Origin: Candidatus Zhuqueibacterota bacterium
GTDB taxonomy: Bacteria; Zhuqueibacterota; Zhuqueibacteria; Thermofontimicrobiales; Thiofontviventaceae
Assembly: GCA_016931935.1 (NCBI GenBank)
Contig: JAFGDW010000237.1
Location: forward strand, 35,745 to 99,744
Length of the DNA: 64,000 nt
Reading direction: 5' to 3'
Positions within the stretch are counted from its first letter, which is position 1, and every line of letters begins with the position of its first letter. Both the position numbers and the translations under genes were made by a program. Positions 10,581-63,950 of this stretch are shown here, piece by piece. The notes under the pieces are model-generated. The model worked only from the letters and a program-made list of their open reading frames with translations, searched no databases and was not told the DNA's origin.

Positions 10581-11525
10581 ATGAGTAGCACAGCTTTAAT
10601 TTTTCACATCCAGCGATTTTCAATCCATGATGGTCCGGGAATTCGGACGACGGTTTTTTTTAAAGGTTGTTCATTAAGTTGTTTTTGGTGTCATAATCCG
10701 GAAGGCCGGCATGCTTATTCAGAAATTCAATTCGTCGCCTCCAATTGCATTGGCTGTGGTGAATGTGTCTACGTATGTGAGCATCATGCTCATCAGCTAA
10801 AAGATGGTGAACGATTTTACAGCCGTGCTCTCTGTGTAAATTGTGGTAAATGCGCCCAAAATTGTTTCTCCGGAACGCTTGAATTAATCGGCAAGCGAAT
10901 GACCGTGAAGCAGGTGATGGATGAAATACTCCGGGATAGCGCATTTTATGAATCATCGAATGGTGGTATTACGTTATCGGGTGGCGAGCCCTGTTTAAAA
11001 AGTGTATTCATCAGAACGCTGTTGGAACAATGTAAACAACAGAACATACATACAGCGCTTGAAACGTGTGGCAATTACAAATGGGATAAATTAAATTCAT
11101 TACTGCCGTTTACGGATTTGGTTATGATGGATATTAAATTAATGAATCCGGACAAGCACAAACAGGTGACCGGCGATTCTAACAAACGGATCATTACCAA
11201 TGCCCGACAACTGGTATTAACCGATAAACCGATTATTTTCCGCACGCCCATTGTCCCAACGGTTAATGACACGATTGAGGAATTTAGTGAGATTGTTGAC
11301 TTCATTGAAGAATTAATCGAATTACGCCTGAAACGGGGCAAAGCTTCAACAAATGATGCGAATATTCAACTGGAATTGCTGCCGTTTCATCAACTGGCAT
11401 CGGATAAGTACAAACATTTGGGACAGGACTACAAGGCAGCGCAACTGATCCCGCCGGCCAGTGAAAAGATGCATGAACTGGCTGAAATTGCTAAAAAGCA
11501 CGCAATTGATGTGAAAGTAAGGTGA
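10581..11525 (+). CDS. Glycyl-radical enzyme activating enzyme (radical SAM) with inserted two-cluster ferredoxin-like domain
   Basis: It has HDGPGIRTTVFFKGCSLSCFWCHNPE (CX3CX2C radical SAM) plus CIGCGECVYVCEHHA and CVNCGKCAQNC. This insertion is characteristic of non-PFL-type activases. Confidence 0.9.
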   Translation: MSSTALIFHIQRFSIHDGPGIRTTVFFKGCSLSCFWCHNPEGRHAYSEIQFVASNCIGCGECVYVCEHHAHQLKDGERFYSRALCVNCGKCAQNCFSGTLELIGKRMTVKQVMDEILRDSAFYESSNGGITLSGGEPCLKSVFIRTLLEQCKQQNIHTALETCGNYKWDKLNSLLPFTDLVMMDIKLMNPDKHKQVTGDSNKRIITNARQLVLTDKPIIFRTPIVPTVNDTIEEFSEIVDFIEELIELRLKRGKASTNDANIQLELLPFHQLASDKYKHLGQDYKAAQLIPPASEKMHELAEIAKKHAIDVKVR

Positions 11526-11544
11526 TCGTGAATTTGCTAAGACC

Positions 11545-11577
11545 ACCGATGCTATCGCTCGAAGCGCTGGCATCGGT
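11545..11577 (+). other. Branched hairpin with outer stem ACCGATGC/GCATCGGT enclosing a CGCTcgaAGCG mini-palindrome, between activase and GRE genes
   Basis: I read it directly from the sequence. The outer stem is identical to that of the hairpin at 15762-15796. Confidence 0.45.
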
Positions 11578-11618
11578 ACCTGGAAGCAAATAAACTTTAT
11601 TCATCTTAAAAATGAGAA

Positions 11619-16539: not shown

Positions 16540-17158
16540 CCGTCACGACAGGTCGCGGACGATTTATATTTCGGTTTTGCCACCGGATGGGAAGATATTT
16601 GTTGCAAAAACGAACCGTTGGTTCCCATGGATTTTTTCAAGAGTGTGGTCGTACCGCGTTATAGACGAATTCGTGTCCGTCCCGAAATGGTTCGAAATCA
16701 TCTTGATTGCAAGTTAAATATTTAAATTATATAAGAAAGTATGACAAGCTGGAAGCTTATCGTACTTTACCGGACAGACACGAATTAGCATGAAACTTCA
16801 CACTGCCGGAATTGACAAATGGTATACCGGTTGCAATTGCGATGTCCGGCTGCTGTTGCCGCATTTCCTGGAAGCCGGTATTAATTGCCTGTTTCCGCAT
16901 GAAGTCAATAGTTGTATTCATCCCGCGCAGTTGCTAAATGAATACGGCAAAGACCTGAGAATAATGGGGGGTTTCGATAAATTGGAAATGATTAAGGGCA
17001 AAGAAGCGATTTAAAAATACATGGAAAGCCTGGCGCCATTGGTCGAGTGTGGGGGATATATTCCATTTTGCAACCACCGGTGCCCGCCGGATGTAAAGCC
17101 GGAGAATTTTTTGTATTATCTGAATTTGAAAGAGCAGATGTTCGGGGTAAAAATGTAA
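16540..17158 (+). pseudogene. Decayed third URO-D/MtaA-like paralog (N-terminal third missing, in-frame stops)
   Basis: Pieces in one frame (16460-16717, 16790-17014, 17021-17158) align with the C-terminal two-thirds of the 2-661 and 2785-3801 paralogs (…NRWFPWIFSRV… / …GGYIPFCNHRCPPDVKPENF…). They are interrupted by TAA at 16718 and 17012, and by TGA. Confidence 0.55.
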
Positions 17159-41367: not shown

Positions 41368-41553
41368 CCATTTAAAAGCATTCTTTTGCTTATCGAAAAA
41401 AGAATTGGTATTCAGGATGACAATTCCATAACTTGCGGATAAATCTGGATAATATAAATGATTTCCAGCTAGTATTATATTTTGTGTTGCATTTAAACAG
41501 ATTATTTCGTACATTTGAGACAATATTTTTCAAAATTTAATCTGATTTCCATT

Positions 41554-43281
41554 ATGAAAACATACTCATACATTAATTTTTTCATTTTACTATTGTTATC
41601 TGCCAGTATCAATGTTTCTGCCCAGCCGGAGCAAACTGTTCCGAGCATACCTGGAACGGACGGTCCCGTTCTTGTTCAACCTGCCGCCAGAAGTTTACTC
41701 CATACAAAAACACCCGAGTTTAAATGGAAACCCCTTAATAAGAAAGATATCGAATATCGTCTGCGAATTGCCGAATGGAATGGTAAAATTGTTTTTGACG
41801 AATGGGTGGGTACAAATACGCATTTTGTTATGCCAAGGACAGATCTGTTCGATGACTTGAAAATTTATCTCTGGAGTGTGTTCGCATACCAGGGGCAGGA
41901 TGTCTGGCAAAGTGATACGTATTCATTTTGTGTAGATTTGGATGTAAGCGTTGATTTGGAAGTATTGCAAATACGGCAAATTGATCCAACAGTAAACTAT
42001 TCTGCAGGCCAATTGATCAATTTTGAAGCGGACGTCCTAAATTGCGGCCCTGTGCAATGCAGAGATATCCATGTGCTGTTAAGTAATGGAAATCCGAACA
42101 TCAATTATAAAATTACCCATCGTCAGAGCGTCGAACAGGATTCGGTAATTATTGAGAAACTTAATCCGAATGAAGTGGTGACAGTTCATCTTAAAGGACA
42201 ATTGCGAGATGGCTTAAATCACTTTTTTGCCCAAATTAAAACCAGAGGAAATTTCTCCGATATTTATTTAGCCAACAACGTGAAAAACGGACCGTTACTG
42301 CAAACTTACGATGATCGGATTCAATTAAAAGGACTATTTGTTTTTTATCCCGCTACTTCCTGGGTTGATGACCAAAGATTTATATTAAGCAAAGAGGCAA
42401 AAGATCAACTCTTTGATAATATTCAACAATTAGATTCGTTTTTATGGGAACATACGCACCTGTTGACACTAAAAATCGATACCGTTTATGCAAGCAGTAA
42501 TTTAGTACCTACTGATTTTACTCTGCTCGATGAGAAATCCGGTTATCTACTTTCACCGGCTCATTTGGACAGGATTAAACAATCGCAGAACGTTAATCCG
42601 GCAATGTACGATTTTATTTTCACATATTACCCATGGAATAATTCGCTAAAACACTGGGTTGGTTATCACGGCTATGTTTTTCAGGAAAGTAGAAATTCAT
42701 CGACGGACCGTCCCCTCGCAGCACAGCCTGTCGCTGGAAACATTACCTTAGGATTTCAGGTTACAGTGCATGAATTTATGCACATTATCGAGTCGCTCGT
42801 TCCTGATAACAGTGAATCCACATGGCCATCGCCGGATGAAATGGAAATGAATACCACGTTTGTAAACGAGTTGGATTATTATGCGTGGATGTTGGAATCA
42901 TGGCCAGCGAATCGCTGGTTCGATATGAAATCAGCAAACACGACAACTGTGTACGCTCAACCCAATCTTGTAGATAGTGACGTACCAGGCGAATTTATGC
43001 TTATGCAAAACTATCCGAACCCATTTAATTCATCGACGATTATTCAATATCGAATCCCTGATCGGTTAAATAGTGATCAACATCAAGTATCGCTTAAAAT
43101 TTACAGTTTACTCGGTGAATGTGTTAAAACGCTGGTATTTGAATCTCAGGCAGCGGGGGAATATGCGGTACGCTGGGATGGTACAAATGAAGAAAATTAT
43201 GCAGTGCCAACAGGAATGTACTTCTATCGGCTGAGTTTTTATAATCAAAATCAAGTACGAAAGCTTTTATTCCTGAAATAA
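41554..43281 (+). CDS. T9SS-secreted putative zinc metallopeptidase (HExxH) with CARDB-like domain and type-A C-terminal sorting domain
   Basis: I moved the start to the ATG (MKTYSYINFFILLLLSASINVSAQ), giving a signal peptide. It has HEFMHIIE. The last 85 aa read …LMQNYPNPFNSSTIIQYRIP…YFYRL…. Confidence 0.7.
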   Translation: MKTYSYINFFILLLLSASINVSAQPEQTVPSIPGTDGPVLVQPAARSLLHTKTPEFKWKPLNKKDIEYRLRIAEWNGKIVFDEWVGTNTHFVMPRTDLFDDLKIYLWSVFAYQGQDVWQSDTYSFCVDLDVSVDLEVLQIRQIDPTVNYSAGQLINFEADVLNCGPVQCRDIHVLLSNGNPNINYKITHRQSVEQDSVIIEKLNPNEVVTVHLKGQLRDGLNHFFAQIKTRGNFSDIYLANNVKNGPLLQTYDDRIQLKGLFVFYPATSWVDDQRFILSKEAKDQLFDNIQQLDSFLWEHTHLLTLKIDTVYASSNLVPTDFTLLDEKSGYLLSPAHLDRIKQSQNVNPAMYDFIFTYYPWNNSLKHWVGYHGYVFQESRNSSTDRPLAAQPVAGNITLGFQVTVHEFMHIIESLVPDNSESTWPSPDEMEMNTTFVNELDYYAWMLESWPANRWFDMKSANTTTVYAQPNLVDSDVPGEFMLMQNYPNPFNSSTIIQYRIPDRLNSDQHQVSLKIYSLLGECVKTLVFESQAAGEYAVRWDGTNEENYAVPTGMYFYRLSFYNQNQVRKLLFLK

Positions 43282-50321: not shown

Positions 50322-50873
50322 TTACACGGGACGTAATTTTTCCAAAAGCAGATTTATCTTTTGATAGAATTCATCAATCGTTCCATCATTGTATAGATGG
50401 TAATCCGCCATTTTCATGCATTCACTCAAATTTTGGGCAGTCGAAACCTGACTTTTTTCCAAATCCTCAATTCGCCGAAAACTCTCAAGATCAACAGCAT
50501 TTTCATTTCTGCCTCTCTGGTTCGCACGTTTAAATCGTTCTTCTATGGGTGCATCAATTGAAATCAGGTTAAAATTCTCCAGTGCGCGTAATGAATTCAC
50601 TTCGTAAACATTACGAATACTATCAATTACGACATCCGAATTTGCAGGTAGGTTCTCTTTAATCCTGTCAGCCAGTACTGATGCGCCGAATGTTTCCCGT
50701 AGATCGTTTCCGATCAATCTAAGATTTTCCCTGCTATGCTCCATGCCACGGCGAGTTAATTCATCGCGAATGCTGTCAGATAGCGAGAAATAAGAAAAGC
50801 CGGTATCTTTTAATAATCGCACGACACACGTTTTTCCAGATGCATTCGTTCCAGTCAATCCTAAAATTAGCAT
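50322..50873 (-). CDS. P-loop nucleotide kinase (dephospho-CoA-kinase / NMP-kinase-like)
   Basis: It has the Walker A motif GLTGTNASGKT near the N-terminus and is 183 aa. Confidence 0.4.
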   Translation of the reverse strand: MLILGLTGTNASGKTCVVRLLKDTGFSYFSLSDSIRDELTRRGMEHSRENLRLIGNDLRETFGASVLADRIKENLPANSDVVIDSIRNVYEVNSLRALENFNLISIDAPIEERFKRANQRGRNENAVDLESFRRIEDLEKSQVSTAQNLSECMKMADYHLYNDGTIDEFYQKINLLLEKLRPV

Positions 50874-51292
50874 GGCCTAAACATAAGAAAAAAAAATCGT
50901 GCAGTCAAGTAAAATATCGATCAGCAGCAATAAAGATGTTTCAAAATATTTATGAAGGTTTTAATAATTTAATAACATGTGGCTTACTGCGTATTTACTT
51001 AGCATCCTTTAAAAATAACGGATTATACTAACCTGTAACTATCTAATCATTTGATATTTAGTAATCTTATGTCCATTTATTTGGAATAATATTTGCAAAT
51101 AACAAATTCTTTCGAATCCTATTTTTATTATTTTTAGCGCAATTTGTCAGAAATTGTCCGATGTAAATGGATTAACACTATTAAAAACAATGTTTGATAC
51201 TAATGTGGAAACTTCATGTGTTACAGTGAACCATCCACAATATGCTGTTCCATTTCCAGCCACCCCTATGTATCAGAAAGGATATTCAAGTG

Positions 51293-52636
51293 ATGTACAG
51301 ATTTAGCCTCATTATCAGCGTACTTTTTTGCATCGTGGTACATGCATATGCTGCAAGCAAGTACGATCTTGCTGACAGCTATCTGCGTAATGGCGATTAT
51401 GAAATGGCGGTCGAGGAATATCAGAAAATATTAGAATCTGAGGGACCAGCCGCTTTATCCAACGATGTTCGCGCAATGGTCGGAAAAATAATTGGTCTTC
51501 ACCAATTGAAAAATTACACCCAATCATTTGCAATTTGTAAGCGTGTATTGAAACTGGACAAATTTAATAGTACAGCTATTTTTTACGCTGGACGCAATCT
51601 GGAATCCCTGCAAAATGATGAGCTGGCTTTGAAATTGTATCAATACTATGAACAAATTAAACCAAGTGATCCATATCGCTTCTATATCCGTGCCCGCTAC
51701 ACTTATCTGCAGGAGAAAGCAATTCAAACCCGAGTCAATAATGCCATTCAAGTTGAGGGGACATTAACAAATCAAAAATTACCTGATAATGCCGTTGCTG
51801 TTCTTTATCCGGTAAACGTCGGCATGGATGCTTCGTGGGATGTTCTGTCAAAAGGATTAACACAACTGATAATTACAGATATGGATAATATCCGCGCGCT
51901 ATCGGTAACCAGTCGAATTGAACTGCAACTTCTCATTGAAAAACTAAAATTCAATCCGATTGAATTAAGAAATGAAAATATTATTCCACGTTTTGGCAGG
52001 CTATTAAATGCAAAATATATTGTAAACGGAACATTTGAAGTTCAAAATAACAATCATATCAATTTACAGCTCGGAATACTAAATTTAAGTCAGCCGGATA
52101 TGATTCAAACTGTAGAATTTAAAGGTGATTTGAAAGACATATTTTCACTTGAAAAGCAGATTGCACAACATGTTTGGGAGCATATGGGCATAACTCCTCG
52201 CTCAAGCGAGCTAAACAAAATTCAGAATTACCAAACTAAAAATTTTGATGCTTTTATGTCCTATTGTCGCGGCCTTGATCTTTTGGATTACGGCAATCCT
52301 GATGGTGCGTATTCAAGTTTTACATTAGCTAGTCGTCAGGATGGCCATTTCATGTTGGCAGTAGACATGAAAGAAACTATCGATGCAATGATTACCATGC
52401 AAACAACCGATCTGGCTCTAAAGCATTTTGATATTATAAAACGTTCCGGCAGAAGTGCTTTTGCCGGCGGACAATTATCACTAAAGCGAACACGATTAAA
52501 CAGTGTGCTTTATAATTTGGATTTGGGTTATTTACCTGGTAATGAATCCCGCAAAGGACCGGTAGGATTTGATCCGATTGATGTAATTACTATCGAGCGA
52601 AAACTTCCGGAACCTCCAACACCACCATCAAACTAA
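51293..52636 (+). CDS. Secreted TPR-containing protein with Pro-rich C-terminus
   Basis: The ATG at 51293 (GTG at 51290) gives the signal peptide MYRFSLIISVLFCIVVHAYA. It has TPR-like helices (…YLRNGDYEMAVEEYQKILE…). Confidence 0.55.
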   Translation: MYRFSLIISVLFCIVVHAYAASKYDLADSYLRNGDYEMAVEEYQKILESEGPAALSNDVRAMVGKIIGLHQLKNYTQSFAICKRVLKLDKFNSTAIFYAGRNLESLQNDELALKLYQYYEQIKPSDPYRFYIRARYTYLQEKAIQTRVNNAIQVEGTLTNQKLPDNAVAVLYPVNVGMDASWDVLSKGLTQLIITDMDNIRALSVTSRIELQLLIEKLKFNPIELRNENIIPRFGRLLNAKYIVNGTFEVQNNNHINLQLGILNLSQPDMIQTVEFKGDLKDIFSLEKQIAQHVWEHMGITPRSSELNKIQNYQTKNFDAFMSYCRGLDLLDYGNPDGAYSSFTLASRQDGHFMLAVDMKETIDAMITMQTTDLALKHFDIIKRSGRSAFAGGQLSLKRTRLNSVLYNLDLGYLPGNESRKGPVGFDPIDVITIERKLPEPPTPPSN

Positions 52637-52661
52637 TGATTTGAATCAGCGGAGAATAAAA

Positions 52662-55600
52662 ATGAAATATCGCTTCTTATTTATAGCTTTAATGCTGTGT
52701 TTTATAATTAATCCGGCTTTCGGACAAGCGCCAGTAATCAGCAATATCTCAGTGCAGCAACGAGGCGGAGAAGATATCGTCGACATTTCCTATGATTTAT
52801 CTGCGTCATCGGAGATAATTGTCCGAGTCTCGATTTTTAATGACAATGAGGATATAAACGCAAATAGTATTACCGGTAACGGGAAAGGCTTCGTTTCGCC
52901 AGGTGAAGAAAAAACGTTGGTATGGAATGCAGGCGAAGATTTTCCAAATCAATATAGTGAAGAAATGACAGTAAAATTTGAAGCAATTGATGTGGATTAT
53001 AATGTCGTTTTCACTAGTGAACTGTTCACAGTTGATACACGTGTGAATAAGCCGCCGGTAGATGGTTGGCAAACAATTTCCAATAATGGAAATACCTTTA
53101 ATGAACAAATACTTATAGATAATAAAGGGAAAATTTGGTGCTTCTATCTAAAATCGACTGGCACTCGCCCCGATTACTGCCTGAAAGTGCTTGATGAAGA
53201 AGGATATATTTATAAAACCGAACGCGTTGTTGCTCATGGATCGGCGCTTGTTACAGGCAAACATCAGACAATTCGGGCTGCAGTAAACAAATTGACAGGC
53301 AATGTATGGGCAGTATTTCAGGGAAGCCATGCTGAAAATCAAACCGGCTTTTTTGTGATTTTTAATGATACAGCGGGAATTAAGCAGGATTCAACGGCAC
53401 TTACTTCAACCACAGATGCAGTAAACGCTCCGAAAGTCGCCGCTGCTCTCAATGGTGACATGTGGTTTAGTTGGCATGGTGGTATTCCTCGAACTGCCAA
53501 TGCAATCGGTGAATATATTCGCTATACCAACTATGGCGAACCAGTGGGATCCACGAGCACTTTTCTGAATGATGCTGATAACGGATTGTTCAATACTGAC
53601 ATTGCCGTCGATAAAAACAATCGCATTTGGTTGCTTGTTGAACGTTCCGAAGATGATTATAAATCACAGTATTATATTTCCAATACTGAAAAAGTGATTA
53701 TCAGCTCCGGAGATATCTCATCCGATAATTTTTATTTTGATCCTCGAATGTCAATCTATGCTGATACATATAACGATCGGATTTGGGTTCTGCAAAAGAA
53801 TATTGACTCCACCTACTATCGAATAAATGGCTATTATTTAGTCGATGAAGCTGTGAACACGACCACCCCGATTTTATCGACGGGTATTTGTTCCTTTATA
53901 ATGAATGAAAACAGAAATCTTGAAGTTGTACGATATAATCCAACGAATCAACGATACCAATTTCGCGAATATAATGGAACTACGGGAGCCATTATCGGAA
54001 TTGATCAGTGGCAAACTCTGTTTTCAGGATTACCTAATCCCGGGCCAGTAGATAATTATGTTGCTTATAACGAGAAGTACTCAACGCGGAAAGTATATCT
54101 GGCTCATACAGACACTGAATTACTTAAAGTAAAACTAAAAGATGCTGTCCTTCGAACTGCCGCAATCGCTGCAATTCCGGATACGATCCGATTTGGTAGT
54201 GTCGGAACTGATACTATCAAGACATCAACATTTCGTATTAAAAATATTGGCACCGAGATAGTTAATATTCAAAATATTTCATCTTCAAACGCACGCTTCA
54301 CCGTAAATAAAACAGAAATAGAATTGAATCCAGGTGATTCGACAACCGTTACTGTAACATTCTCGCCAAATGCAGTCGGGGATATAAGTGGTATAATCAC
54401 AATTACAAGTAATGCGGATAGCGGAACTGAAACAGTATATGCTACCGGTTCCGGATACATTCGTACCTGGTCTCTCACGACAAATCCCACCGCTTTGAAT
54501 TTCGGGGAAGTATCCACAATCTCTGTTAAACGGGATTCATTCTATGTGCGAAATATTGGGAATCAGCGATTAACAATCACAAATATTACATCCAGCAATG
54601 ATCGCTTCACGATTCTGCAACAGGATCGAAATTTCTCGTTAAGCGTAGGCGATTCTCATATTGTCCGCATTGATTTCACTCCGAACGCTGAATCAATTTT
54701 CAACGGAACAGCTAATATTTACAGCAATGCCGGCGTGGAACCGCATCAAGTAAGTTTAACCGGCCGTGGATACGTTTATACTGCCGCTAATTTTTTCCTT
54801 GAACCGACCTCCATTGATTTTGATAGTGTTCTGGTTGGTGAATCCAGTACAGATTCTTTCATTGTAAAAAATACAGGCAATCTGAAACTCGAAGTACGAA
54901 GTGTTGTTTCTAATGACGCACGATTTGCTGTTTTAAAAGAAGATTCTGTATTTAATGTCAGCCCGGGTGATTCACATACCGTGGAAATTGTTTTTACGCC
55001 GACTTCAACCAAAACGTATGAGGGCACGATCACATTTATAAATAATGATCCGGAAACCCCGGAAATATTCGCAACAGTTACAGGACGGGGTTTTTCATAT
55101 GGAACGCCACATATCGTTGTAAGTAAGCAATCGGTGACATTTCAAGATGTGATTGTCGGTCAATCAGATACTAATTTTGTAGACATAATAAATACTGGAA
55201 CCAATGTACTTAAAATAGAGAGCATATCACTAAAGGATTCCTTCTATATAGCCTACTTTGATACTGCAAAATGGGGCACAAAACCAGAATTACACCCAAA
55301 CGATAGTGAAAAACCATTTATGAGAGTTAACGTTATTTTTACTCCAACACGTTTGGGAGATATGGATGCTACATTATATATCCTAAGCAATGATCCGGAG
55401 TTTCCACAAAAATCAATTTCAGTTGTCGGTTCTTCAAGGAATGCAGCACCTCCTGAAATATCTCTTCCACCATCGCTTGCATTTGAAAATGCCATTGTCA
55501 GCCGTAAATATTCGACACAATTTTATATGGGTAATACAGGTGAACAAAATTTAATGATTTCAGGCTATCGTTTAAATTCTTCACAATTTAGTTTAAGCGG

Positions 55601-58600
55601 TGATTCAACCAGAACCTTAGCGCCTAAACAGTATTTAGAGTATACTCTGAAATTCAATCCGACGCAAACAGGTACGATTCAGGATACATTAACATTTTTA
55701 ACTAATGATCCCAATAATCCACAGGCAAAAATATCATTGATCGCTAATAATGTGCGTGAATTGTACGATCAAAAGATTTATGTAAATCTCTTATCATTGG
55801 AATTTGAAACTACTGCATTGGGCAAATCAACGTATAAATATATCAGGATTTACAATCAGGGTGAAAAAAACCTGAAAGTGACCAGTCTGTCCACAAACGA
55901 ATCTCAATTTATTGTCGACCTTGATAGTTTTACAGTATACCCTGGCAGCTATAAACCGGTCCCGATTCGATTTGAACCAATCAACGCAACGGAAATTTCC
56001 GGACAACTAACGATTTTAAGCAATGATCCTAAAAATGGAGAGGTAAATGTTTCATTAAGCGGGATGGGCAGAAATCTTGGTCCGGCTAATATCACTTCAA
56101 ATTTGACAACATTAAACTTCCAGACGGTTGCTGTCAATCATTCTGTGTCAAAATATATTCAAATAAAAAACACAGGTGAGAGTATTTTATCAGTTAGTAA
56201 CATCGAACTTATTAATGATAACTCAAATGTGTTTACCGTTAGTCCGAAATCGTTTCAACTCAATCCAGGATCATATCGGTGGGTAAATGTTATTTATACA
56301 CCGGTTGCAGTCGAAGTTTCGCAGGCCCAAATGGTTGTAAAAAGTAATGATGATGATCTTTCGATAAATCTGGTGGGTATTGGCCGGGAATTATTGGCTG
56401 CAGATATTTCAGTCAGTCATGAATTGTATAATTTTGAAGATGTGGGACTAAATCAGCAATCATCCTTCTATCTACAAATTCGAAACTATGGGGAGACAAC
56501 ATTAAGTGGAGCCATTGCTCTCTCTGATACTACGAATTACACCATATCTGCTTCAAGTTTTACTATAAATGGCGGTCAGTACAGAAATATTCTTGTGATA
56601 TTCCAACCAACAACAATTGGTCAATTAAATTGTCAGCTTAATATTTCTTCAAATGATCCGGAAACTCCAAAATATACAGTTAATTTAAATGGGCAGGGAC
56701 GCGAGCTGCAGCTACAAAATATTGTAATCCAGCCAACATCGATCGACTTCGGATCAGTCGCGATCGAGCGATCAGTCGTCCATTATTTTTTGGTGAACAA
56801 TTCGGGTGAAGCTGATTTACTAATCAATGGAATAACGAGTACAAATGCAAATATTTTTCAGGTTAAAAATGAATCCTTTACAGTAATGGCCGGGCGGTCA
56901 CGATATATTGCTGTTACATTTGAACCCGTCGAAAAAAGGGTTTATGAAGCTGCTATTCAAATTTCAAGCAACGATCCGGACCGACCATATTATGAATTGC
57001 CTGTTCAGGGCGAAGGCCGTGAATTGCTGGGTCCGATAGCGACGCTTAATCCCGATAGCCTTAATTTTGGTGGCGTTGCAGTAAACGATACGCTCAGTCT
57101 GCCCGTGATCATCCAAAATACTGGCGAAGAAGTGTTACAGATAAGTTCTGTTAATCGTGGTGAAACAGATAATTATTGGGTGAGCAAAGACAATTTCGAA
57201 ATTGAGCCGGGCCATTATGATATGTATTATGTCACGTTCAATCCAACTTCTTTGGACACATTTCCTGCACTGATTGAATTTGTAGATAATAGTGATAGTG
57301 CAACAATCCTGAAAGTAACCGGTTTTGGCCGTGATTCAATAGCTGCTCAACTGGTTTATAATGATGATGGAGTAAATTTCGGTAAAGTTGCGATCGGCAA
57401 TTCTTTCGTCAGAGAATTTACTGTTTCCAATGGTGGAGAGCTCCCGTTATCAATCCAACAAATCTCGATTGATAGTAGTGCGTTCACCGTAGATACAACA
57501 TCCTTCACATTATTGAAGCATCAACAAGAAACATTGGAAATTCAGTTTCAACCTGTAAAGGAAGATACTATTATCGCCAGTCTAAAATTCATAGCAAACG
57601 GTGAAATGGTGAGCGTACCATTGTATGCGCGAGGCAGAGAATTCGTCGCACAAACAATTGGTGTGCTTGCTGACACCTTGAGTTTTGGAAAGACAAAAAT
57701 TGCCTCAGCCAAGTCGTTACCTGTTACTGTTTACAATTATGGCGATGCAACATTACAGGTTTCCAATGTACTGACCAGTGATACCCAATTCACGCCGAAT
57801 ACGGATGGATTCAGCGTAGCACCGGGTCTGAGTTATTCCTTTAACGTGAGTTTTGTTCCTCAACAGGCAGACAGTATTTCCGCATTTCTCTATATTCAGA
57901 GTAATGATCCTGTACGATCCACCTATTCTATTTTCCTGAGTGGAACAGGCGTAGAGCCAGATATTCAGAAAATTGATGTTACACCGAATCCTGTGAAATT
58001 TCCACTCGTCTCCGTTAATGCCACCGGGCGACAATCTTTATGGATAAGCAATATTGGAGAAGACACGTTGAAAGTTACTAATATTATTAGTAATAATTCT
58101 GTATTTTCAACGTCGTTTTCAACGCCATTCAATATTTTGGCCGGTGAATACGAACAGGTGTATATTTATTTTTCACCAACTGAGGTAAAAACGTATGAGG
58201 CGAATATTCAAATAATAAATAATGATCCTTTGAATGATACATTGGCTGTGAGAGTTGAAGGAACAGCAAGGGTACTTGGCCCGCCACAAATAGCCATCGC
58301 TACGGATACTTTAAAATTTGAAGCAACACCAGTATCAAATTTGTACCAGCGCAATATATTAATTCAAAACATCGGTGAATCCACGCTTCACGTAAAGAAT
58401 GTTTCCACCTCAACAAATAGTCGTTTTTCAGCACAGGTAAATGAGTTTTCTGTTTTATCGCAAAACAGCTATTATTTATCAATTGGCTTTAAGCCGGATA
58501 GCATCGGAACTTTTTATGATTCACTGAAAATATCAAGCGATGATCCGACAGATAGTACTGTAACAATATATCTATATGGTATTGGTCGGAAGAATTATCC

Positions 58601-61600
58601 ACAAAAAATCGAAGTTTCAACAACAGAACTAAATTTTGGCACAACTGTTATCAATCGTCCTGTCACAAAATCATTCAGGATTTCTAACACAGGCGAGAGC
58701 AAGCTTACTGTGCTAAATATTGGCTTACAGGAATCATTTGCAAAAGAATTTCAATTCAGCTCTTCCTGGATGGTGCTTGAACCCGGTACGTATCAGGATA
58801 TTAATGTGACATACAATCCGACTACTAAAGATACGATTGGAATTGAATTTGAAATAAGAAGCAATGATCCTGACCATCCCAATAATTATGTAAAATTAAC
58901 TGCGAGGTGTTTGAATTACTTTGGCCCACAGTTAAGCATTTCACATTCATTCCTTAACTTTGGTTCGCTTATCGTTGGCGGACATAAAGAACAACGGTTT
59001 TACATTTCAAATTTGTCGTCTCAACAGGCGTTACAAATTGATAGTATTAGCGTCAATGCTCAATACCGCACCATTTATCAAATTTCACCTGCTTCATTTT
59101 CAGTGCCGCCACTTGGGCAAAGAGAAGTTATTGTTGAATTTTCTCCGGAGTTAGCTCAATATTATAATGCAAATCTTACAGTACATCATAATGACCAGTA
59201 TCCGGGCAGGGAAACTATTGACATTTATGCTCGCGGAACTCAATCGAGCGGAAGCTATGTGCTTAATCAGATTAGTGGTTGGACTGTAAATACACCACCA
59301 TATCCTTATACTAATATTTTTTCCAGTACTACCGGTACAGTGTATTTCGTCAAAGATATTTATATTACCGACATTATTTCATCGGCGCACTTATTTCTAT
59401 TTTTTGCCGATTCAATTGACTTTTACATAAATGGTTCATTAGTACTTTCCGCAAAAACAACGCGGGCGGATACAAGTTTCGTTTATGATATTCAAGATTA
59501 TGATGTATCTCCCTATCTTTTGTATGGTCGGAATAGAGTTGCTGCCAAGGTCTATTACAATGGCGGGTACGGCGCGTTCGATTGTGCGTTATTGGTAAAT
59601 GGCGAACCTGTAATTAAACACGGTCATAATTATTCTAGTGAACAATTATCATGGTGGAACTATTTCAATTATACGGGAAGTGGTTCAACGTCACCTATTA
59701 CTTTTGAAACCAGATATTGGTTTGATTTCGAATATGGCTGGTCCGGCGCGGATACGTTATTGACATCGTTTGAGTTTGAACCTGGTATTAATCCTTACTC
59801 AGTGTGGGATGCATCCTCATATGGACGACAGGCTACATTTAGTAATTTGACGTGGAAACGGGGAATTCGTGGTCAGGCACTTGAATTTACAGGAAATACA
59901 AATTCACATGTGTCATTTCAAGCGAGTTTAAACGGATTTCCACGCACATTTCAATTATGGTTCAACAATTATGGGAAACAATCCCATATTCAAACGATCT
60001 TAAGTAACAGTATGAACAATAGCAATGGCCGAGGTATGTATCTTGACACGAATAATATTTTGTATGTTTATTCGCGTAACGGGGCAATTTCTACTGGTTA
60101 TACGATTCTGCCTAACCGTTGGTATTTTGTGGCGCTACAATATCTTTCCGGACAAATTCGTGTTATTGTCGACCGAACAGTGGTAGCAACTTTTACCATA
60201 ACAGGGCAGGAAATAGGTGGTTCTGTAAATACATATCTAGGTGGCAATCCAATGCTTGACAGCGTTGAAAACGGCTTTTATGGTATGATAGATGATCTGG
60301 TTATTACGAATACTGCACCTGTAAACGTTCAAATACCGAATGTTATGACAGTCAGCTCGGCAGATACGATTACAAGCGCATCTGCCACAAATATTCCTGT
60401 TTCGTTGATTGTAAAACCAGCGCCGTTTGAAATGCAATCTGCCGAATTTCAATATGCAATTGGTGGAGAAAACAATTTTAAAACTATAAATGCGACTGTT
60501 ACCGATACGACGTCGGTGGATAGCATGCTTACATTCACCATTCCTGCCGTAGATGTGAATATTCGTGGTTTACGTTACAAATTACAACTTGAGACGAATT
60601 ATGGAACAATGCAATTCCCTGATGACGGCTCAAGTATTTGGGTACCAGTCTCAACAGTACAAGAAAGTGCACACGTCGTTCTGCGGGATACAATTTATCA
60701 GATGGTTTCAATTCCATACAATTTGGATAGTACATCCATTACCAGTATTTTCCAGGATAATTTTGGAGAATATGATCCCTATAATTGGCGGCTTTTCCGT
60801 TGGTTACCCAATCAAAAAATGTACGAAGAATATAATGATTCGAGTAGTGCAGGCTGGGAAAACATTGGCAGGGGAGAGGCTGTCTGGTTAGTAACAAAAG
60901 AACGGCCTTCTTTTAACGCAGGCGCAGGCTGGTCTGCATTAGATAATAATGATGTTCGCATTGAGTTGCAGCCAGGGTGGAATCAGATCGCAAATCCATT
61001 CCCATTTCCGGTACGTTGGACAGACATTCAATTAACCGCAAATGATGATCAGGTCTCCGACCCATTTTATTATCAAACCGCAGGTACAAGTATCGGATTC
61101 TTGAATTGGAGTGATTATAACCTGGAACCCTGGAAAGGCTATTTTGTAGAGAATCTTGATTCAACCTCGTCATTCCTGATTATTCCACCCGTTGCGGCGA
61201 CAAGTACTTCATTGGATAAGCAACAGGGATTGGTCAATATTCCGTCCAAATATCAGGATGCTGCGTTGCTGATTTCCTTAGATATTACTCGTGATAACTA
61301 TTCAGACAGGAATAATTTTATTGGTATAATCCATGGTGCCAGTGATAATCTCGATCGCTTTGATAATCATGAACCACCGCATATTAAAGATGGAATTTAT
61401 CTAAGCCTGCAAAACAATGTTGAAAAAAGCAAAAAATTTAGCGCAGATTTCCGATCATGGAATAATGATGGTCAGATCTGGATAGTCAATATTGAAAATG
61501 CAAAGCTGAAAAGGACAAGTTCAACATTTAATGTGAATCTTCACACCGAGCTACCTGCAGGCTGGTTATGCTATCTGTTTGATCTTAAGTCGGATGTCGC

Positions 61601-62003
61601 CTACAATCTATTAGAAAAAAATAGCTTCGTTCTCAACGATGGGAAAAAAGTTCATAATTACAAATTGATTGCAGGAACCGAATCATTCGTAAATTCCAAT
61701 AACGGTGGCATCCCATTAATTCCGTTGAGTTTTGAACTATTTAATAATTACCCGAATCCGTTCAATCCATCAACGACAATCAGTTTCAATATTTCTCAGC
61801 GAACACATGTTGAAATTCAATTGTACAACATTCTAGGTCAGCGCATACGAACACTTATAGATCAAACGATGCGTGGTGGCCATCATCAACTGGTATGGGA
61901 TGGGACAAATGAACGAGGCATTTCTGTTGCATCAGGCCTCTATTTTGTGCATTTGAAAGCAGAAGGTAAACACTCAGTTAAGAAAATGATGATCATTAAA
62001 TAA
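52662..62003 (+). CDS. Giant (3,113 aa) T9SS cargo protein: beta-propeller-like N-terminal region, ~16 tandem Ig-like (ASH / choice-of-anchor-D type) repeats, jelly-roll and LamG-like domains, type-A CTD
   Basis: GGAG is upstream of the ATG at 52662. It has a signal peptide. About 105-aa units recur, each ending I-x-SNDP-x-x-P…L-x-G-x-G. The LamG-like segment is …LTWKRGIRGQALEFTGNTNSHVSFQ…GMIDDLVITN. The last 85 aa read LFNNYPNPFNPSTTISFNI…YFVHL. Confidence 0.85.
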   Translation: MKYRFLFIALMLCFIINPAFGQAPVISNISVQQRGGEDIVDISYDLSASSEIIVRVSIFNDNEDINANSITGNGKGFVSPGEEKTLVWNAGEDFPNQYSEEMTVKFEAIDVDYNVVFTSELFTVDTRVNKPPVDGWQTISNNGNTFNEQILIDNKGKIWCFYLKSTGTRPDYCLKVLDEEGYIYKTERVVAHGSALVTGKHQTIRAAVNKLTGNVWAVFQGSHAENQTGFFVIFNDTAGIKQDSTALTSTTDAVNAPKVAAALNGDMWFSWHGGIPRTANAIGEYIRYTNYGEPVGSTSTFLNDADNGLFNTDIAVDKNNRIWLLVERSEDDYKSQYYISNTEKVIISSGDISSDNFYFDPRMSIYADTYNDRIWVLQKNIDSTYYRINGYYLVDEAVNTTTPILSTGICSFIMNENRNLEVVRYNPTNQRYQFREYNGTTGAIIGIDQWQTLFSGLPNPGPVDNYVAYNEKYSTRKVYLAHTDTELLKVKLKDAVLRTAAIAAIPDTIRFGSVGTDTIKTSTFRIKNIGTEIVNIQNISSSNARFTVNKTEIELNPGDSTTVTVTFSPNAVGDISGIITITSNADSGTETVYATGSGYIRTWSLTTNPTALNFGEVSTISVKRDSFYVRNIGNQRLTITNITSSNDRFTILQQDRNFSLSVGDSHIVRIDFTPNAESIFNGTANIYSNAGVEPHQVSLTGRGYVYTAANFFLEPTSIDFDSVLVGESSTDSFIVKNTGNLKLEVRSVVSNDARFAVLKEDSVFNVSPGDSHTVEIVFTPTSTKTYEGTITFINNDPETPEIFATVTGRGFSYGTPHIVVSKQSVTFQDVIVGQSDTNFVDIINTGTNVLKIESISLKDSFYIAYFDTAKWGTKPELHPNDSEKPFMRVNVIFTPTRLGDMDATLYILSNDPEFPQKSISVVGSSRNAAPPEISLPPSLAFENAIVSRKYSTQFYMGNTGEQNLMISGYRLNSSQFSLSGDSTRTLAPKQYLEYTLKFNPTQTGTIQDTLTFLTNDPNNPQAKISLIANNVRELYDQKIYVNLLSLEFETTALGKSTYKYIRIYNQGEKNLKVTSLSTNESQFIVDLDSFTVYPGSYKPVPIRFEPINATEISGQLTILSNDPKNGEVNVSLSGMGRNLGPANITSNLTTLNFQTVAVNHSVSKYIQIKNTGESILSVSNIELINDNSNVFTVSPKSFQLNPGSYRWVNVIYTPVAVEVSQAQMVVKSNDDDLSINLVGIGRELLAADISVSHELYNFEDVGLNQQSSFYLQIRNYGETTLSGAIALSDTTNYTISASSFTINGGQYRNILVIFQPTTIGQLNCQLNISSNDPETPKYTVNLNGQGRELQLQNIVIQPTSIDFGSVAIERSVVHYFLVNNSGEADLLINGITSTNANIFQVKNESFTVMAGRSRYIAVTFEPVEKRVYEAAIQISSNDPDRPYYELPVQGEGRELLGPIATLNPDSLNFGGVAVNDTLSLPVIIQNTGEEVLQISSVNRGETDNYWVSKDNFEIEPGHYDMYYVTFNPTSLDTFPALIEFVDNSDSATILKVTGFGRDSIAAQLVYNDDGVNFGKVAIGNSFVREFTVSNGGELPLSIQQISIDSSAFTVDTTSFTLLKHQQETLEIQFQPVKEDTIIASLKFIANGEMVSVPLYARGREFVAQTIGVLADTLSFGKTKIASAKSLPVTVYNYGDATLQVSNVLTSDTQFTPNTDGFSVAPGLSYSFNVSFVPQQADSISAFLYIQSNDPVRSTYSIFLSGTGVEPDIQKIDVTPNPVKFPLVSVNATGRQSLWISNIGEDTLKVTNIISNNSVFSTSFSTPFNILAGEYEQVYIYFSPTEVKTYEANIQIINNDPLNDTLAVRVEGTARVLGPPQIAIATDTLKFEATPVSNLYQRNILIQNIGESTLHVKNVSTSTNSRFSAQVNEFSVLSQNSYYLSIGFKPDSIGTFYDSLKISSDDPTDSTVTIYLYGIGRKNYPQKIEVSTTELNFGTTVINRPVTKSFRISNTGESKLTVLNIGLQESFAKEFQFSSSWMVLEPGTYQDINVTYNPTTKDTIGIEFEIRSNDPDHPNNYVKLTARCLNYFGPQLSISHSFLNFGSLIVGGHKEQRFYISNLSSQQALQIDSISVNAQYRTIYQISPASFSVPPLGQREVIVEFSPELAQYYNANLTVHHNDQYPGRETIDIYARGTQSSGSYVLNQISGWTVNTPPYPYTNIFSSTTGTVYFVKDIYITDIISSAHLFLFFADSIDFYINGSLVLSAKTTRADTSFVYDIQDYDVSPYLLYGRNRVAAKVYYNGGYGAFDCALLVNGEPVIKHGHNYSSEQLSWWNYFNYTGSGSTSPITFETRYWFDFEYGWSGADTLLTSFEFEPGINPYSVWDASSYGRQATFSNLTWKRGIRGQALEFTGNTNSHVSFQASLNGFPRTFQLWFNNYGKQSHIQTILSNSMNNSNGRGMYLDTNNILYVYSRNGAISTGYTILPNRWYFVALQYLSGQIRVIVDRTVVATFTITGQEIGGSVNTYLGGNPMLDSVENGFYGMIDDLVITNTAPVNVQIPNVMTVSSADTITSASATNIPVSLIVKPAPFEMQSAEFQYAIGGENNFKTINATVTDTTSVDSMLTFTIPAVDVNIRGLRYKLQLETNYGTMQFPDDGSSIWVPVSTVQESAHVVLRDTIYQMVSIPYNLDSTSITSIFQDNFGEYDPYNWRLFRWLPNQKMYEEYNDSSSAGWENIGRGEAVWLVTKERPSFNAGAGWSALDNNDVRIELQPGWNQIANPFPFPVRWTDIQLTANDDQVSDPFYYQTAGTSIGFLNWSDYNLEPWKGYFVENLDSTSSFLIIPPVAATSTSLDKQQGLVNIPSKYQDAALLISLDITRDNYSDRNNFIGIIHGASDNLDRFDNHEPPHIKDGIYLSLQNNVEKSKKFSADFRSWNNDGQIWIVNIENAKLKRTSSTFNVNLHTELPAGWLCYLFDLKSDVAYNLLEKNSFVLNDGKKVHNYKLIAGTESFVNSNNGGIPLIPLSFELFNNYPNPFNPSTTISFNISQRTHVEIQLYNILGQRIRTLIDQTMRGGHHQLVWDGTNERGISVASGLYFVHLKAEGKHSVKKMMIIK
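54160..59240 (+). repeat. Tandem in-frame array of ~16 diverged ~318-nt domain repeats inside the giant gene
   Basis: The recurring motif positions in the translation are ITSNADSGT, IYSNAGVEP, FINNDPETP, ILSNDPEFP, FLTNDPNNP, ILSNDPKNG, ISSNDPETP, ISSNDPDRP, IQSNDPVRS, IINNDPLND, ISSDDPTDS, IRSNDPDHP and VHHNDQYPG. Confidence 0.7.
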
Positions 62004-62027
62004 TATATAATCGCGGAGTAATTTCAC

Positions 62028-63146
62028 ATGAATAAATTGCTTATTGCCATTGTTACATTTACACTTGTCGGAAGTTGCTTTGGTCAAACAGAGTACTGGC
62101 CGTCACAACAACAAACGCGAACATTTCGCACTTCAATTGTAATTCAAAATTGGGGAATTGATGGTATTGATGAACGAATCGCTGAAGGCACATTTCCACT
62201 CAATCTATACTGGCCTGTCAACAATAAACTTAATCTTCAATTGACACATTCACCTGCAATGTCCCGGTTCGGTGATTTGCAATTAAGTGGCATGTCAGAT
62301 ACATGGATTAACGGATCCTACGCATTGTCTGATGATAAATACATTATATCAATGGGGATGGGATTGCCGACGGGAAAATCGAAATTAACGACTGAAGAAT
62401 ATGAACTTCAATCGAGTTTGAGCAATAATATGTTCCATTTTCGGCTTCCAGTGTATGGTCAGGGATTCACGCTGAATATGGGATTTGCTTCTGTTTATTC
62501 CATTAATGAGAAAACAGTTTTGGGTGGTGGCGCTAATTTTGTTTTTAAAGCGCCTTACCAAATAAGTGAGTCACTTGATAAGAGTTATGATCCGGGAAAT
62601 CAGCTTGGCTTGAATGCAGGAATAGATCATCAATTTTCGGATCAATTAAAATTGACGGTGGATTTATTGTACACTTATTATACGAACGATACTTTTGATG
62701 GTGCGGAAGTTTTCCATGCTGGTGGAAAAACAGGAGCCAAGCTCGGATTTACATACACAACAAATAAATATATTGCATGGGCAGTGGCTCGATATCGGTC
62801 ATCCGGAAAAAATGAAACATGGGATGGTCAAACGCGTGCGTTAATAACCGAACCTTTAAACACCAATATTACAGAACGAGAATTGAATGCTATATTTTGC
62901 TATATTTTGTCGGAGCTGTTTTCGATTGATGTACTATTTGAAGCGCGGTCTTATGTAGAAAACGAATACGGTGTCGGGCAGGCAGATGTTTTTGGTGGGG
63001 GAGTAGGAAATCACATTCAGCTACGTCCCAATATTTCATTAAAATCGTCATTTAAAATCTTTACGGGGGACGGCTACATTACAAATATGGGCGTCCCCGG
63101 AATTTCAGGTATTGAATTTACAATAGGAACTTCAGTCAAATTCTAA
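62028..63146 (+). CDS. Outer-membrane beta-barrel protein (possibly a T9SS/cargo-associated partner)
   Basis: GCGGAG is upstream. It has a signal peptide, amphipathic beta-strand periodicity and a C-terminal …TIGTSVKF. Confidence 0.45.
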   Translation: MNKLLIAIVTFTLVGSCFGQTEYWPSQQQTRTFRTSIVIQNWGIDGIDERIAEGTFPLNLYWPVNNKLNLQLTHSPAMSRFGDLQLSGMSDTWINGSYALSDDKYIISMGMGLPTGKSKLTTEEYELQSSLSNNMFHFRLPVYGQGFTLNMGFASVYSINEKTVLGGGANFVFKAPYQISESLDKSYDPGNQLGLNAGIDHQFSDQLKLTVDLLYTYYTNDTFDGAEVFHAGGKTGAKLGFTYTTNKYIAWAVARYRSSGKNETWDGQTRALITEPLNTNITERELNAIFCYILSELFSIDVLFEARSYVENEYGVGQADVFGGGVGNHIQLRPNISLKSSFKIFTGDGYITNMGVPGISGIEFTIGTSVKF

Positions 63147-63147
63147 A

Positions 63148-63375
63148 TTATTTGGCAATTGCTAATTGCATCCCATCCATGGACATTTGAAAATCAGTTT
63201 CACGAACCAGTGAGCCAACTGTAAAATAGCTGACAAGACTACGACCACAGTTATTTTCACAAACAAATTTATCCAAAATCCCGTCACAATCATTTTGAGA
63301 TTGGACCTGGAATCGTTTTACATTACCACAAGCTTCACAAGTAATAATCATTTCATCGATGTGGATGCTGCTCAT
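63148..63375 (-). CDS. Small Cys-rich (zinc-ribbon-like) hypothetical protein
   Basis: It has CEAC…CDG…CENNC spacing. It is 75 aa and ATG-initiated. Confidence 0.3.
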   Translation of the reverse strand: MSSIHIDEMIITCEACGNVKRFQVQSQNDCDGILDKFVCENNCGRSLVSYFTVGSLVRETDFQMSMDGMQLAIAK

Positions 63376-63553
63376 TTGGGCCTCAACTTTTATTATAGGT
63401 TCGTATAGAATTGCCTAAAGCTTTGCAACTTTTATACCATCTATTGAGATAATTTGTTATTATGGAAGTTAGCCAAAATGTAGGCGGTATAGCAATTACA
63501 CTCTTGTCTCAAAATGGACAATTTGTGAATTGAAACAAGACACAAAAAAACTC

Positions 63554-63582
63554 TTGACAATTTCATAATTTTTAAATATATT
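63554..63582 (+). promoter_or_regulatory. Consensus sigma-70-like promoter TTGACA-17 nt-TATATT
   Basis: It is an exact match to both hexamers with a 17-nt spacer. An ATG at 63588 opens a 43-codon ORF. A second, weaker TTGCAT-16-TTTATT pair lies at 63757-63784 just before tRNA-Gly. Confidence 0.35.
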
Positions 63583-63793
63583 GTGCCATGTTAAAATTGA
63601 CTATCATATGTATTTTGGTTGTGATAGCTTTTATTAGCAGTCGCATTTCGAGAAAACAAATAAAACGAGTCCGGCAGTACAGAGCAGCTGTCCTATCACG
63701 TTTAAAACATTACGAATAACACACCAAATTTGTCTAAAAATTTTTTAAAAAATACTTGCATAATTATAATTTTTTATTTATATTCCAAAGTCC

Positions 63794-63865
63794 GCGGGAG
63801 TAGTTCAGTGGTAGAACACCACCTTGCCAAGGTGGTTGTCGCGAGTTCAAGTCTCGTCTCCCGCT
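63794..63865 (+). tRNA. tRNA-Gly (anticodon GCC)
   Basis: It has GCGGGAG…CTTGCCAAG…CTCCCGC-T. The cloverleaf is near-identical to bacterial tRNA-Gly(GCC). Confidence 0.9.
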
Positions 63866-63877
63866 TTTTTTATTTGT

Positions 63878-63950
63878 GGCGGCGTAGCCAAGTGGCTAAG
63901 GCGGAGGTCTGCAAAACCTCTATTCATCGGTTCGACTCCGATCGCCGCCT
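63878..63950 (+). tRNA. tRNA-Cys (anticodon GCA)
   Basis: It has GGCGGCG…anticodon loop CTGCAAA…GGTTCGACTCCG…CGCCGCC-T. Confidence 0.9.

Follow-up and report, generated by a model that had tools for sequence, protein, structure and literature searches.

A giant type-A cargo gene of the type IX secretion system set between conserved scaffold and barrel genes in a Candidatus Zhuqueibacterota bacterium, with a possible dedicated docking pair

Positions 50874-63146 of a 64,000-nucleotide stretch of DNA from Candidatus Zhuqueibacterota bacterium (contig JAFGDW010000237.1; this whole stretch is called the window) hold a gene for a giant protein with a type IX secretion system (T9SS) sorting signal, set between a gene for a secreted tetratricopeptide repeat (TPR) protein and a gene for an outer-membrane β-barrel. 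The question raised by this arrangement is whether the two flanking genes serve the giant and, if so, by what means. The original prediction, made from the sequence alone, was of a three-gene module for the display of an adhesin or enzyme. The answer modestly favored here is that T9SS exports the giant to the cell surface and that scaffold and barrel are a pair dedicated to docking it, an arrangement that would be analogous to PorE-PorP-cargo complexes while drawn from different protein families. The proteins of genes 1 and 3 matched, residue for residue, the hypothetical proteins JW960_18470 and JW960_18480 from a metagenome-assembled genome (MAG) of candidate division KSB1. The locus, with the immunoglobulin (Ig)-like and other predicted domains of the giant numbered in amino acids (aa), was laid out as follows.

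50874-51292 (+): AT-rich intergenic spacer of 419 bp upstream of gene 1
51082-51097 (+): sigma-54-type -24/-12 element TGGAATAATATTTGCA in the spacer
51293-52636 (+): gene 1, secreted scaffold, 447 aa
52641-62003 (+): gene 2, giant, 3,120 aa (3,113 aa from ATG 52662)
52641-52724 (+): giant signal peptide, read from the sequence, cleavage predicted between AFG and Q; alternative start ATG 52662
52725-53000 (+): N-terminal Ig-like domain (aa 29-120), with its homologue at the N-terminus of an FGE-sulfatase-fold protein of related loci
53001-54122 (+): head, aa 121-494, a repeat of ~53 aa with GxIW-type motifs
54123-59201 (+): stalk, aa 495-2187, 16 choice-of-anchor-D / ASH-type Ig-like domains
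59202-59912 (+): possible jelly-roll / galactose-binding-like segment, aa 2188-2424
59913-60317 (+): LamG / concanavalin-A-like domain, aa 2425-2559, PF13385
60411-61727 (+): module preceding the C-terminal domain (CTD), here the pre-CTD module, aa 2591-3029, an undescribed family of ~440 aa
61749-62003 (+): type-A T9SS CTD, aa 3037-3120, and stop codon
62028-63146 (+): gene 3, β-barrel, 372 aa

As originally described, gene 1 is followed by a gap of 25 bp to ATG 52662, with a TTG of the same frame at 52641, and the giant by one of 24 bp to the barrel gene; the 3,113-aa length counted from the ATG and the 372-aa barrel ending in Phe were likewise confirmed.

The giant was predicted to start with a Sec signal peptide (MKYRFLFIALMLCFIINPAFG, followed by QAPV), and signal peptides were read on all three proteins of the operon. 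At the other end of the giant, the type-A CTD of the original prediction passed both curated hidden Markov models (HMMs): aa 3037-3118 scored 34.6 bits with TIGR04183 (cutoff 23) and 36.3 bits with PF18962 (cutoff 27). The same segment matched PF13860 FlgD_ig (31.2 bits), FlgD was the only match of the tail profile in the PDB and was confined to the CTD, and the type-B model TIGR04131 did not match the giant's CTD. The LamG domain was also borne out (Laminin_G_3, PF13385, 39.0 bits against a cutoff of 27.6), and the jelly-roll claimed ahead of it is given here as a possible one, the only match being to Glyco_hydro_2_N below cutoff (E 0.0046) in a segment that is kept in relatives. Of the W-rich, propeller-like head that had been described, the repeat character held: an internal period of ~53 aa was found, and hhalign joined four of six segments at 65-93% probability. 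W content was only mildly enriched (2.1% versus 1.2%), and profile searches gave the head no Pfam family and no PDB sequence match; its fold may be a β-propeller. In the giant, and in more than 90% of the members closest to it in the barrel family of gene 3 (alignment A5), the predicted signal-peptidase cleavage would put Gln at +1, a pattern known as the Bacteroidetes 'Q-rule' (N-terminal pyroglutamate) and here met in a KSB1 lineage. A second type-A CTD protein of 588 aa (41515-43281, +; TIGR04183 29.1 bits, FlgD_ig) lacked both the pre-CTD module and partner genes, offering an internal negative control, and its presence argues indirectly that T9SS is in use.

The association of the giant with its neighbors was examined in about 20 related loci (given L numbers), which came from context look-ups and one metagenome scan and were annotated with locally built profiles; a narrow scan of contigs with a conserved barrel stretch contributed two of them. 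The order TPR protein-giant-barrel recurred in ~20 related loci at 33-51% identity, in independent metagenomes and MAGs. In seven of seven distant loci, where barrel identity fell to 22-30%, the barrel gene was paired with a TPR/CsgG-like gene, and the pair genes either adjoined or had only CTD cargo between them. A 1,542-aa ASH and CTD cargo lay between the pair genes in L009 and a 924-aa NIDO and CTD cargo in L010; the pair was adjacent in L011 (Gemmatimonadaceae), with three Big_2 proteins downstream, and adjacent without cargo in L012 and L032-L034. The TPR/TolB-N-like protein and the barrel are, as judged from these neighborhoods, the invariant core of the system.

The cargo element that went with this core was the pre-CTD module. 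It was present at full length in the giant, in the L009 1,542-aa and L010 924-aa cargoes and in a 598-aa protein of L009 that consists of little more than signal peptide, pre-CTD module and CTD; matches of the base-region profile to the L009 and L010 proteins ranged from E 1e-54 to 1e-66. Every cargo between pair genes carried the module, whereas it was absent from the 588-aa CTD protein of the window, from the 917-aa and 389-aa CTD proteins of L020 and L025, and from the L011 Big_2 proteins. Since otherwise unrelated passengers share this stem and other CTD proteins are without it, the stem tracks the pair. Searches of Pfam and of PDB sequences gave it no match. We propose that the pre-CTD module is a docking stem, a role suggested by its co-inheritance with the pair.

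Gene 1 had been described as a signal-peptide TPR protein. Both elements stood (MYRFSLIISVLFCIVVHAYA followed by AS at the N-terminus; TPR_2, 31.6 bits against a cutoff of 27), and the protein proved to be more than TPR, with a further domain set between two TPR parts. An AlphaFold2 model built from 15 sequences (pLDDT 83.5) gave the following arrangement.

aa 24-160: TPR helices
aa 165-297: compact TolB-N/LpoB/CsgG-like α/β domain, four strands in the model with helices on either side
aa 304-384: second TPR-like array
C-terminal remainder: disordered tail in which the motifs LDLGYLPGNxSRxG and LPxPPxPP are conserved

The α/β domain superposed on the TolB N-terminal domain with a root-mean-square deviation (rmsd) of 3.2-3.5 Å over ~140 aa and also matched LpoB and GNA1162 structurally. 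PF03783 (CsgG) did not match the window protein; it matched homologues, both at 38-45% identity and more remote, with scores such as 30.8 and 35.4 bits (cutoff 20.8), over profile positions ~9-100 of 210 only. A CsgG-type channel was ruled out: the window protein has a signal-peptidase-I site (between AYA and A) and no lipobox, and no channel-forming hairpins appeared in its model. For these reasons gene 1 is taken to encode a periplasmic scaffold and not a CsgG pore. Scaffolds P0013-P0015 and P0017, of the canonical clade described below, carried a lipobox (LIAC, LVGC, AIGC, LVAC) where those of the fused clade, which includes the window, have a signal-peptidase-I site; the scaffold would thus be membrane-tethered in the canonical clade and soluble in the fused one.

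The gene 3 product was modeled by AlphaFold2 as a barrel of ~16 strands (pLDDT 74), and Foldseek comparison of the model with the PDB returned outer-membrane barrels only (CymA, porins, OmpG, PelB, FadL) at TM ~0.5. Its best-conserved stretch, GLPTGK...LPVYGQGF at aa 112-147, falls in a loop/helix region. With no Pfam match at E≤5 and no NCBIfam match at E≤0.01, it belongs to a family without a model in either collection. The family is nevertheless large: in a library of 1.84 billion proteins its profile matched 1,051 cluster representatives at E≤1e-3, and 203 of these at E≤1e-30. Among 57 diverse members there was no consistent Pfam family, the scattered matches being four to OMP_b-brl, three to Phenol_MetA_deg, one to PorP_SprF and one to the PelB_C barrel. 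PorP/SprF identity, raised by the comparison with SprB/SprF-like pairs in the original prediction, was ruled out: neither PF11751 nor TIGR03519 matched the window barrel, only the one member of the 57 touched PF11751 (E 1e-3), and the adjacent cargo is type A, not type B. PorV appeared in the PDB profile search at E 0.2, which is not significant.

In the stalk, the ~16 Ig-like units first described were counted as 16 stretches by NF012200 choice_anch_D (590.6 bits, cutoff 45) and as exactly 16 units of 100-111 aa, aa 495-2187, by a self-built repeat profile; PF22544 (437 bits) and the ASH and Cep192-type Ig models agreed. The head (~365 aa) and base (~940 aa) were constant in length in all relatives and the stalk alone varied: the window has 16 units, a form with 14 recurs at unchanged coordinates in many independent samples, one subclade has eight and a distant cargo three. 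In alignment, the eight-unit form corresponds to units 1, 2, 4 and 10-14 in the form with 14 units; whole internal blocks must therefore have been gained or lost. Within clades, unit number and coordinates were fixed. Pairwise identity among the units was 17-38%, and neither Tandem Repeats Finder nor a repeat finder detected any DNA repeat above 30 nt in the gene, whether tandem or dispersed, which rules out a recent or recombination-prone array. The length variation that had been forecast is therefore real as an ancient difference between clades and not as an actively variable site.

Comparison of the loci also revised the idea of a three-gene module. Conservation of the flanking genes upheld the module as such, and the full gene order in relatives was scaffold (~450 aa), FGE-sulfatase-fold protein (~380 aa), giant CTD cargo, barrel (363-380 aa) and a small fifth gene (~230 aa) whose product is CsgG/LpoB/FlgO-like with one TPR. 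The window has neither a separate FGE-fold gene nor the small CsgG-like gene, and no remnant of gene 5 was found after the barrel or elsewhere in the window (tblastn found only the paralogous gene 1 domain). The window operon is accordingly read as a reduced form of a five-gene module and not as a three-gene invention.

The missing FGE-fold gene appears to have left a trace. The best match of the relatives' FGE-fold protein was TIGR03525 GldK (E 7e-42); since its 144 bits fell below the equivalog cutoff of 350, the protein is regarded as a paralogue of PorK/GldK and not as PorK. It resembles the FGE-sulfatase-fold ring lipoprotein PorK/GldK in matching that model best and differs in its sub-equivalog score and in being without a lipobox; of it, the window keeps only the N-terminal Ig-like domain, in fused form. 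Indeed, aa 1-120 of the giant (signal peptide and Ig-like domain) were homologous to the FGE-protein N-terminus (BLASTP, 33% identity, E 1e-15), and the FGE profile matched the giant in its N-terminal part only. The identical fusion was present in L006, L013 and L026, the P0006 contig was also without a separate FGE gene, and scaffolds of the fused clade were monophyletic and sister to the canonical clade. Because the fusion is shared and confined to one clade, it is old and inherited and not an assembly error, and the N-terminal Ig-like domain is interpreted as a gene-fusion remnant. Separately, the giant gene was split in L002 (12603-21027; overlapping ORFs (open reading frames) of 795 and 2,078 aa) compared with an intact 2,803 aa in the near-identical L003 (12603-21011); the L002 split is a frameshift or assembly error.

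The spacer ahead of gene 1 bears on the control of the operon. The long, AT-rich spacer of the original prediction was found as described (29.4% GC against 40.8% for the whole window), although it was only joint third in length among ~40 intergenic gaps of the window (685, 422, 419 and 419 bp). Shared with a divergent kinase-like gene, it would contain the gene 1 promoter and a predicted 5' untranslated region (UTR) of ~185 nt. A structured RNA or riboswitch in this leader was ruled out: Rfam gave no match to the spacer at the gathering score or at E≤1, the 5' UTR folded no better than shuffled sequences (z = -0.07), and the upstream region contained no notable inverted repeat.

The sole conserved block in aligned orthologous spacers was TTTGGAATAATATTTGCA, with unconserved flanks. 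This block has the form expected of a sigma-54-type -24/-12 element (TGGCAC-N5-TTGCW): its GG and GC doublets are 10 nt apart, it lies upstream (211 nt 5' of the gene 1 ATG), and it is conserved in orthologous loci. Of the 19 closest loci, the window included, 15 have the sequence TGGnnnnnnnnTTG[CT] (TGG-N8-TTG[CT]) 5' of gene 1 (14 read TTGC and L003 reads TTGT); GG...TTGC was retained in three further loci of the 19, and L022 has just 135 bp of upstream sequence. Across loci the element lay 106-423 nt ahead of the gene 1 start codon, and it was absent from the distant pair-only loci. Within the window, TGGWAT-N5-TTGCA occurred three times against 0.29 expected, a count reached in none of 100 shuffles, and all three sites were intergenic and faced an ORF. 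Bare TGG-N8-TTGCW was not enriched in the window (8 versus 6.2 expected), so the sigma-54 signal rests on the extended motif and on its conservation across loci. The three genes form one operon, probably transcribed from this sigma-54-type promoter, and the conservation of the promoter suggests that the giant surface proteins are signal-induced rather than constitutive.

Two further elements of this type were seen. One, TGGTATAAAAGTTGCA at 63424-63439 (-), lies 49 nt 5' of a 75-aa ORF (63148-63375, -) with CxxC...CxxxC motifs, which converges on the barrel gene with stops 1 nt apart; the other (16820-16835, +) lies within the 685-bp spacer ahead of an ORF at 17204. Near the distant pairs, Ser/Thr kinase genes were present: an FHA-PP2C-kinase(PEGA) gene directly upstream in L009 (1-4006) and a kinase beside an extra CsgG-like gene in L011 (10415-12730). 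These kinases hint at phospho-signaling control there in place of the sigma-54 motif.

Taken together, these features could be accommodated in the following mechanism. The giant would be exported by Sec and translocated by T9SS through its type-A CTD; once displayed, it would have the C-terminal base at the membrane and the head some 16 Ig domains off. The Ig-like cap and the repeat-built head would form the far tip and the likely binding end, the 16-domain stalk would be a spacer of clade-dependent length (8, 14 or 16 units), and the possible jelly-roll, the LamG domain and the pre-CTD module would make up the conserved base near the cell. Scaffold and barrel would make up an outer-membrane station dedicated to the cargo, there to receive its base or to hold it, possibly by physical contact with the pre-CTD module. 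The giant itself may act as an adhesin or otherwise bind a ligand.

Several observations weigh against this docking-pair mechanism. Among the 34 window ORFs scanned (~12 smaller ones were left out) there were no T9SS core genes (SprA/Sov, PorV, PorU, GldK-N) and neither rpoN nor an enhancer-binding protein, so that the use of sigma-54 is itself an inference. Known type-A cargo uses the shuttle PorV and attachment to anionic lipopolysaccharide (A-LPS) and needs no private barrel (PMC9143113, PMC12618676). Two genes of the full module are absent from the window, and their parts must therefore be dispensable or replaced. Finally, the pair occurs without adjacent T9SS cargo in L011, L012 and L032-L034 and may therefore have a function of its own.

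The comparison with SprB/SprF was reasonable in its logic and failed in its families. In P. gingivalis the PorE-PorP-PG1035 complex unites a periplasmic protein with TPRs, a barrel of the outer membrane and a type-B cargo (PMC9143113), and in F. johnsoniae SprF serves SprB, PorP/SprF proteins being the cognate shuttles of type-B CTD cargo (PMC9143113, PMC12618676). The present locus shares with these systems a cargo gene beside an outer-membrane barrel gene, a TPR periplasmic protein in the set, a cargo C-terminal region that goes with its own barrel, and a giant protein as client, giant adhesins such as SprB being typical ones. It differs in its barrel, which HMM searches do not place in PorP/SprF, and in its CTD, which is of type A, whereas pairing with a cognate barrel is known for type B. 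The specificity element here, predicted from sequence, appears to be the 440-aa pre-CTD module and not CTD motifs. The periplasmic partner is TPR plus TolB-N/LpoB-like and is not PorE, whose domains are TPR, β-propeller, carboxypeptidase-regulatory-like and OmpA_C. A stronger version of the docking-pair reading, in which scaffold, 16-strand barrel and pre-CTD module constitute a third, undescribed route of T9SS cargo targeting or anchoring, is put forward only tentatively; this reading takes the barrel family, of more than 1,000 clusters, to be spread over non-Bacteroidota lineages such as KSB1 and Gemmatimonadota.

Of the alternatives, the one that survives best starts from the cargo-free loci. 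Scaffold and barrel would be a self-standing envelope machine, either a polymer exporter of the AlgK-AlgE or PelB-PelC type or an envelope tether, into which a cargo gene landed in some lineages. The pair stands alone in L012 and L032-L034 and has non-CTD neighbors in L011; PelBC had the lowest rmsd among the Foldseek matches of the barrel (9h80_M, TM 0.48, rmsd 7.5 Å); the barrel-family member that touched the PelB_C barrel did so through PF24604; and the α/β domain of gene 1 falls within the TolB-N/LpoB/GNA1162 group of folds. A TolB-N-like fold is known from PelC, and exopolysaccharide exporters in general (AlgK-AlgE, PelB-PelC, BcsC, PgaA) likewise combine a periplasmic TPR scaffold with a 16-18-strand barrel. 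Here, however, TPR and TolB-N-like parts share one chain with the barrel separate, the likeness is at the level of fold, and the barrel matches are generic. The associated gene is one for protein cargo and no synthase is linked: in none of ~30 loci was a polysaccharide synthase or glycosyltransferase conserved beside the pair. Moreover, the three cargo architectures found between pair genes share the pre-CTD module, which is hard to call accident. This explanation is considered unlikely.

In a second alternative, the giant would be an ordinary type-A adhesin that is served by PorV/PorU only and fixed to lipopolysaccharide; gene 1 would encode a chaperone keeping the precursor export-competent, and the barrel would be a porin without cargo contact. 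The CTD is indeed typical of type A, PorV recognizes all known type-A CTDs (PMC12618676), TPR proteins are often chaperones or scaffolds, and the barrel is no less like general porins than like anything else. Like PorV-dependent cargo such as the gingipains, which are joined to A-LPS by PorU, the giant has a Sec signal peptide and a CTD above the TIGR04183 and PF18962 cutoffs. Those proteins, however, are from Bacteroidota and not from KSB1, and no private barrel or scaffold is known for them, whereas the cargo gene here lies between two conserved partners. In all seven distant loci the TPR protein, and not any cargo, is the closest associate of the barrel, and the pre-CTD module tracks the pair even in the 598-aa L009 protein, which is too small to require a chaperone for giant proteins. 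The ordinary-adhesin explanation is thus held to be quite improbable. The last alternative, display of an enzyme or a glycan-capture device in which LamG and jelly-roll bind polysaccharide, the head is catalytic and the neighbors form a product uptake channel, could draw on the LamG domain, the weak galactose-binding-like match and the wealth of sugar-metabolism genes in the window, but it is very improbable and the enzyme display of the original prediction is not retained, since no catalytic family was found in the 3,120 aa, the head had no PDB sequence match, the sugar genes are not syntenic in relatives, and LamG and jelly-roll are placed at the cell-proximal base and not at the tip.

With the docking pair thus the favored reading, the novelty of the locus can be stated. 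A giant Ig-repeat T9SS protein is in itself an ordinary kind of object: its stalk units are those of the choice-of-anchor D / ASH / HYDIN-VesB Ig-like repeat proteins, a domain that precedes various sorting signals, although that family covers the stalk only and not the head, base, pre-CTD module or partner genes. New here are a dedicated partner pair outside PorP, the pre-CTD module specific to that pair, the paralogue resembling PorK with its fusion remnant, and the sigma-54-type control. Literature searches found, in the library covered, no description of this module, of KSB1 T9SS cargo or of the barrel family, and a search on the exporter analogy was also blank. Knowledge of T9SS comes almost entirely from two Bacteroidota models, in which type-A cargo goes via PorV and type-B cargo via private PorP-like barrels; here, in another phylum, a type-A cargo shares its operon with a private barrel, whose family is unrelated and unannotated, and with a TPR scaffold of TolB-N-like character. 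Should the link be physical, cargo-specific surface stations would have evolved more than once, a barrel family of over 1,000 clusters and a 440-aa domain would gain names and a testable role, and the pre-CTD module together with the pair would provide a sequence rule for predicting surface-anchored giants in uncultured bacteria of the FCB group.

The surroundings of the operon contained the following additional features.

50322-50873 (-): kinase-like gene, divergent neighbor of gene 1
63147-63793: stretch listed as non-coding, between the barrel gene and the tRNA genes
63794-63950: tRNA-Gly and tRNA-Cys

In relatives, the kinase-like neighbor was a fusion of 339-345 aa between an AAA_17 kinase-like domain and a dCMP/dCTP deaminase (8487-9506 in L002 and L003, 2857-3894 in L005, 152-1170 in L006), with weak resemblance to the anti-phage dCTP deaminase NF041025. 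It was split into two genes in L006, and the window and the P0006 contig keep only the kinase-like part of 183-186 aa. At the opposite end of the operon, the top sigma-70-like match of the region (63554-63582, +; TTGACA-17-TATATT, 11/12) lay ~210 nt upstream of tRNA-Gly/tRNA-Cys and is probably the promoter of these genes. Farther away, positions 1-31909 of the window make up an anaerobic sugar-use island, without synteny with the module in relatives, that holds a glycyl-radical enzyme and its activase (10581-13853), an ABC sugar transporter, D-lyxose isomerase and aldehyde:ferredoxin oxidoreductase, together with GxGYxYP putative glycosidase, GH43/32-like and PfkB kinase genes.

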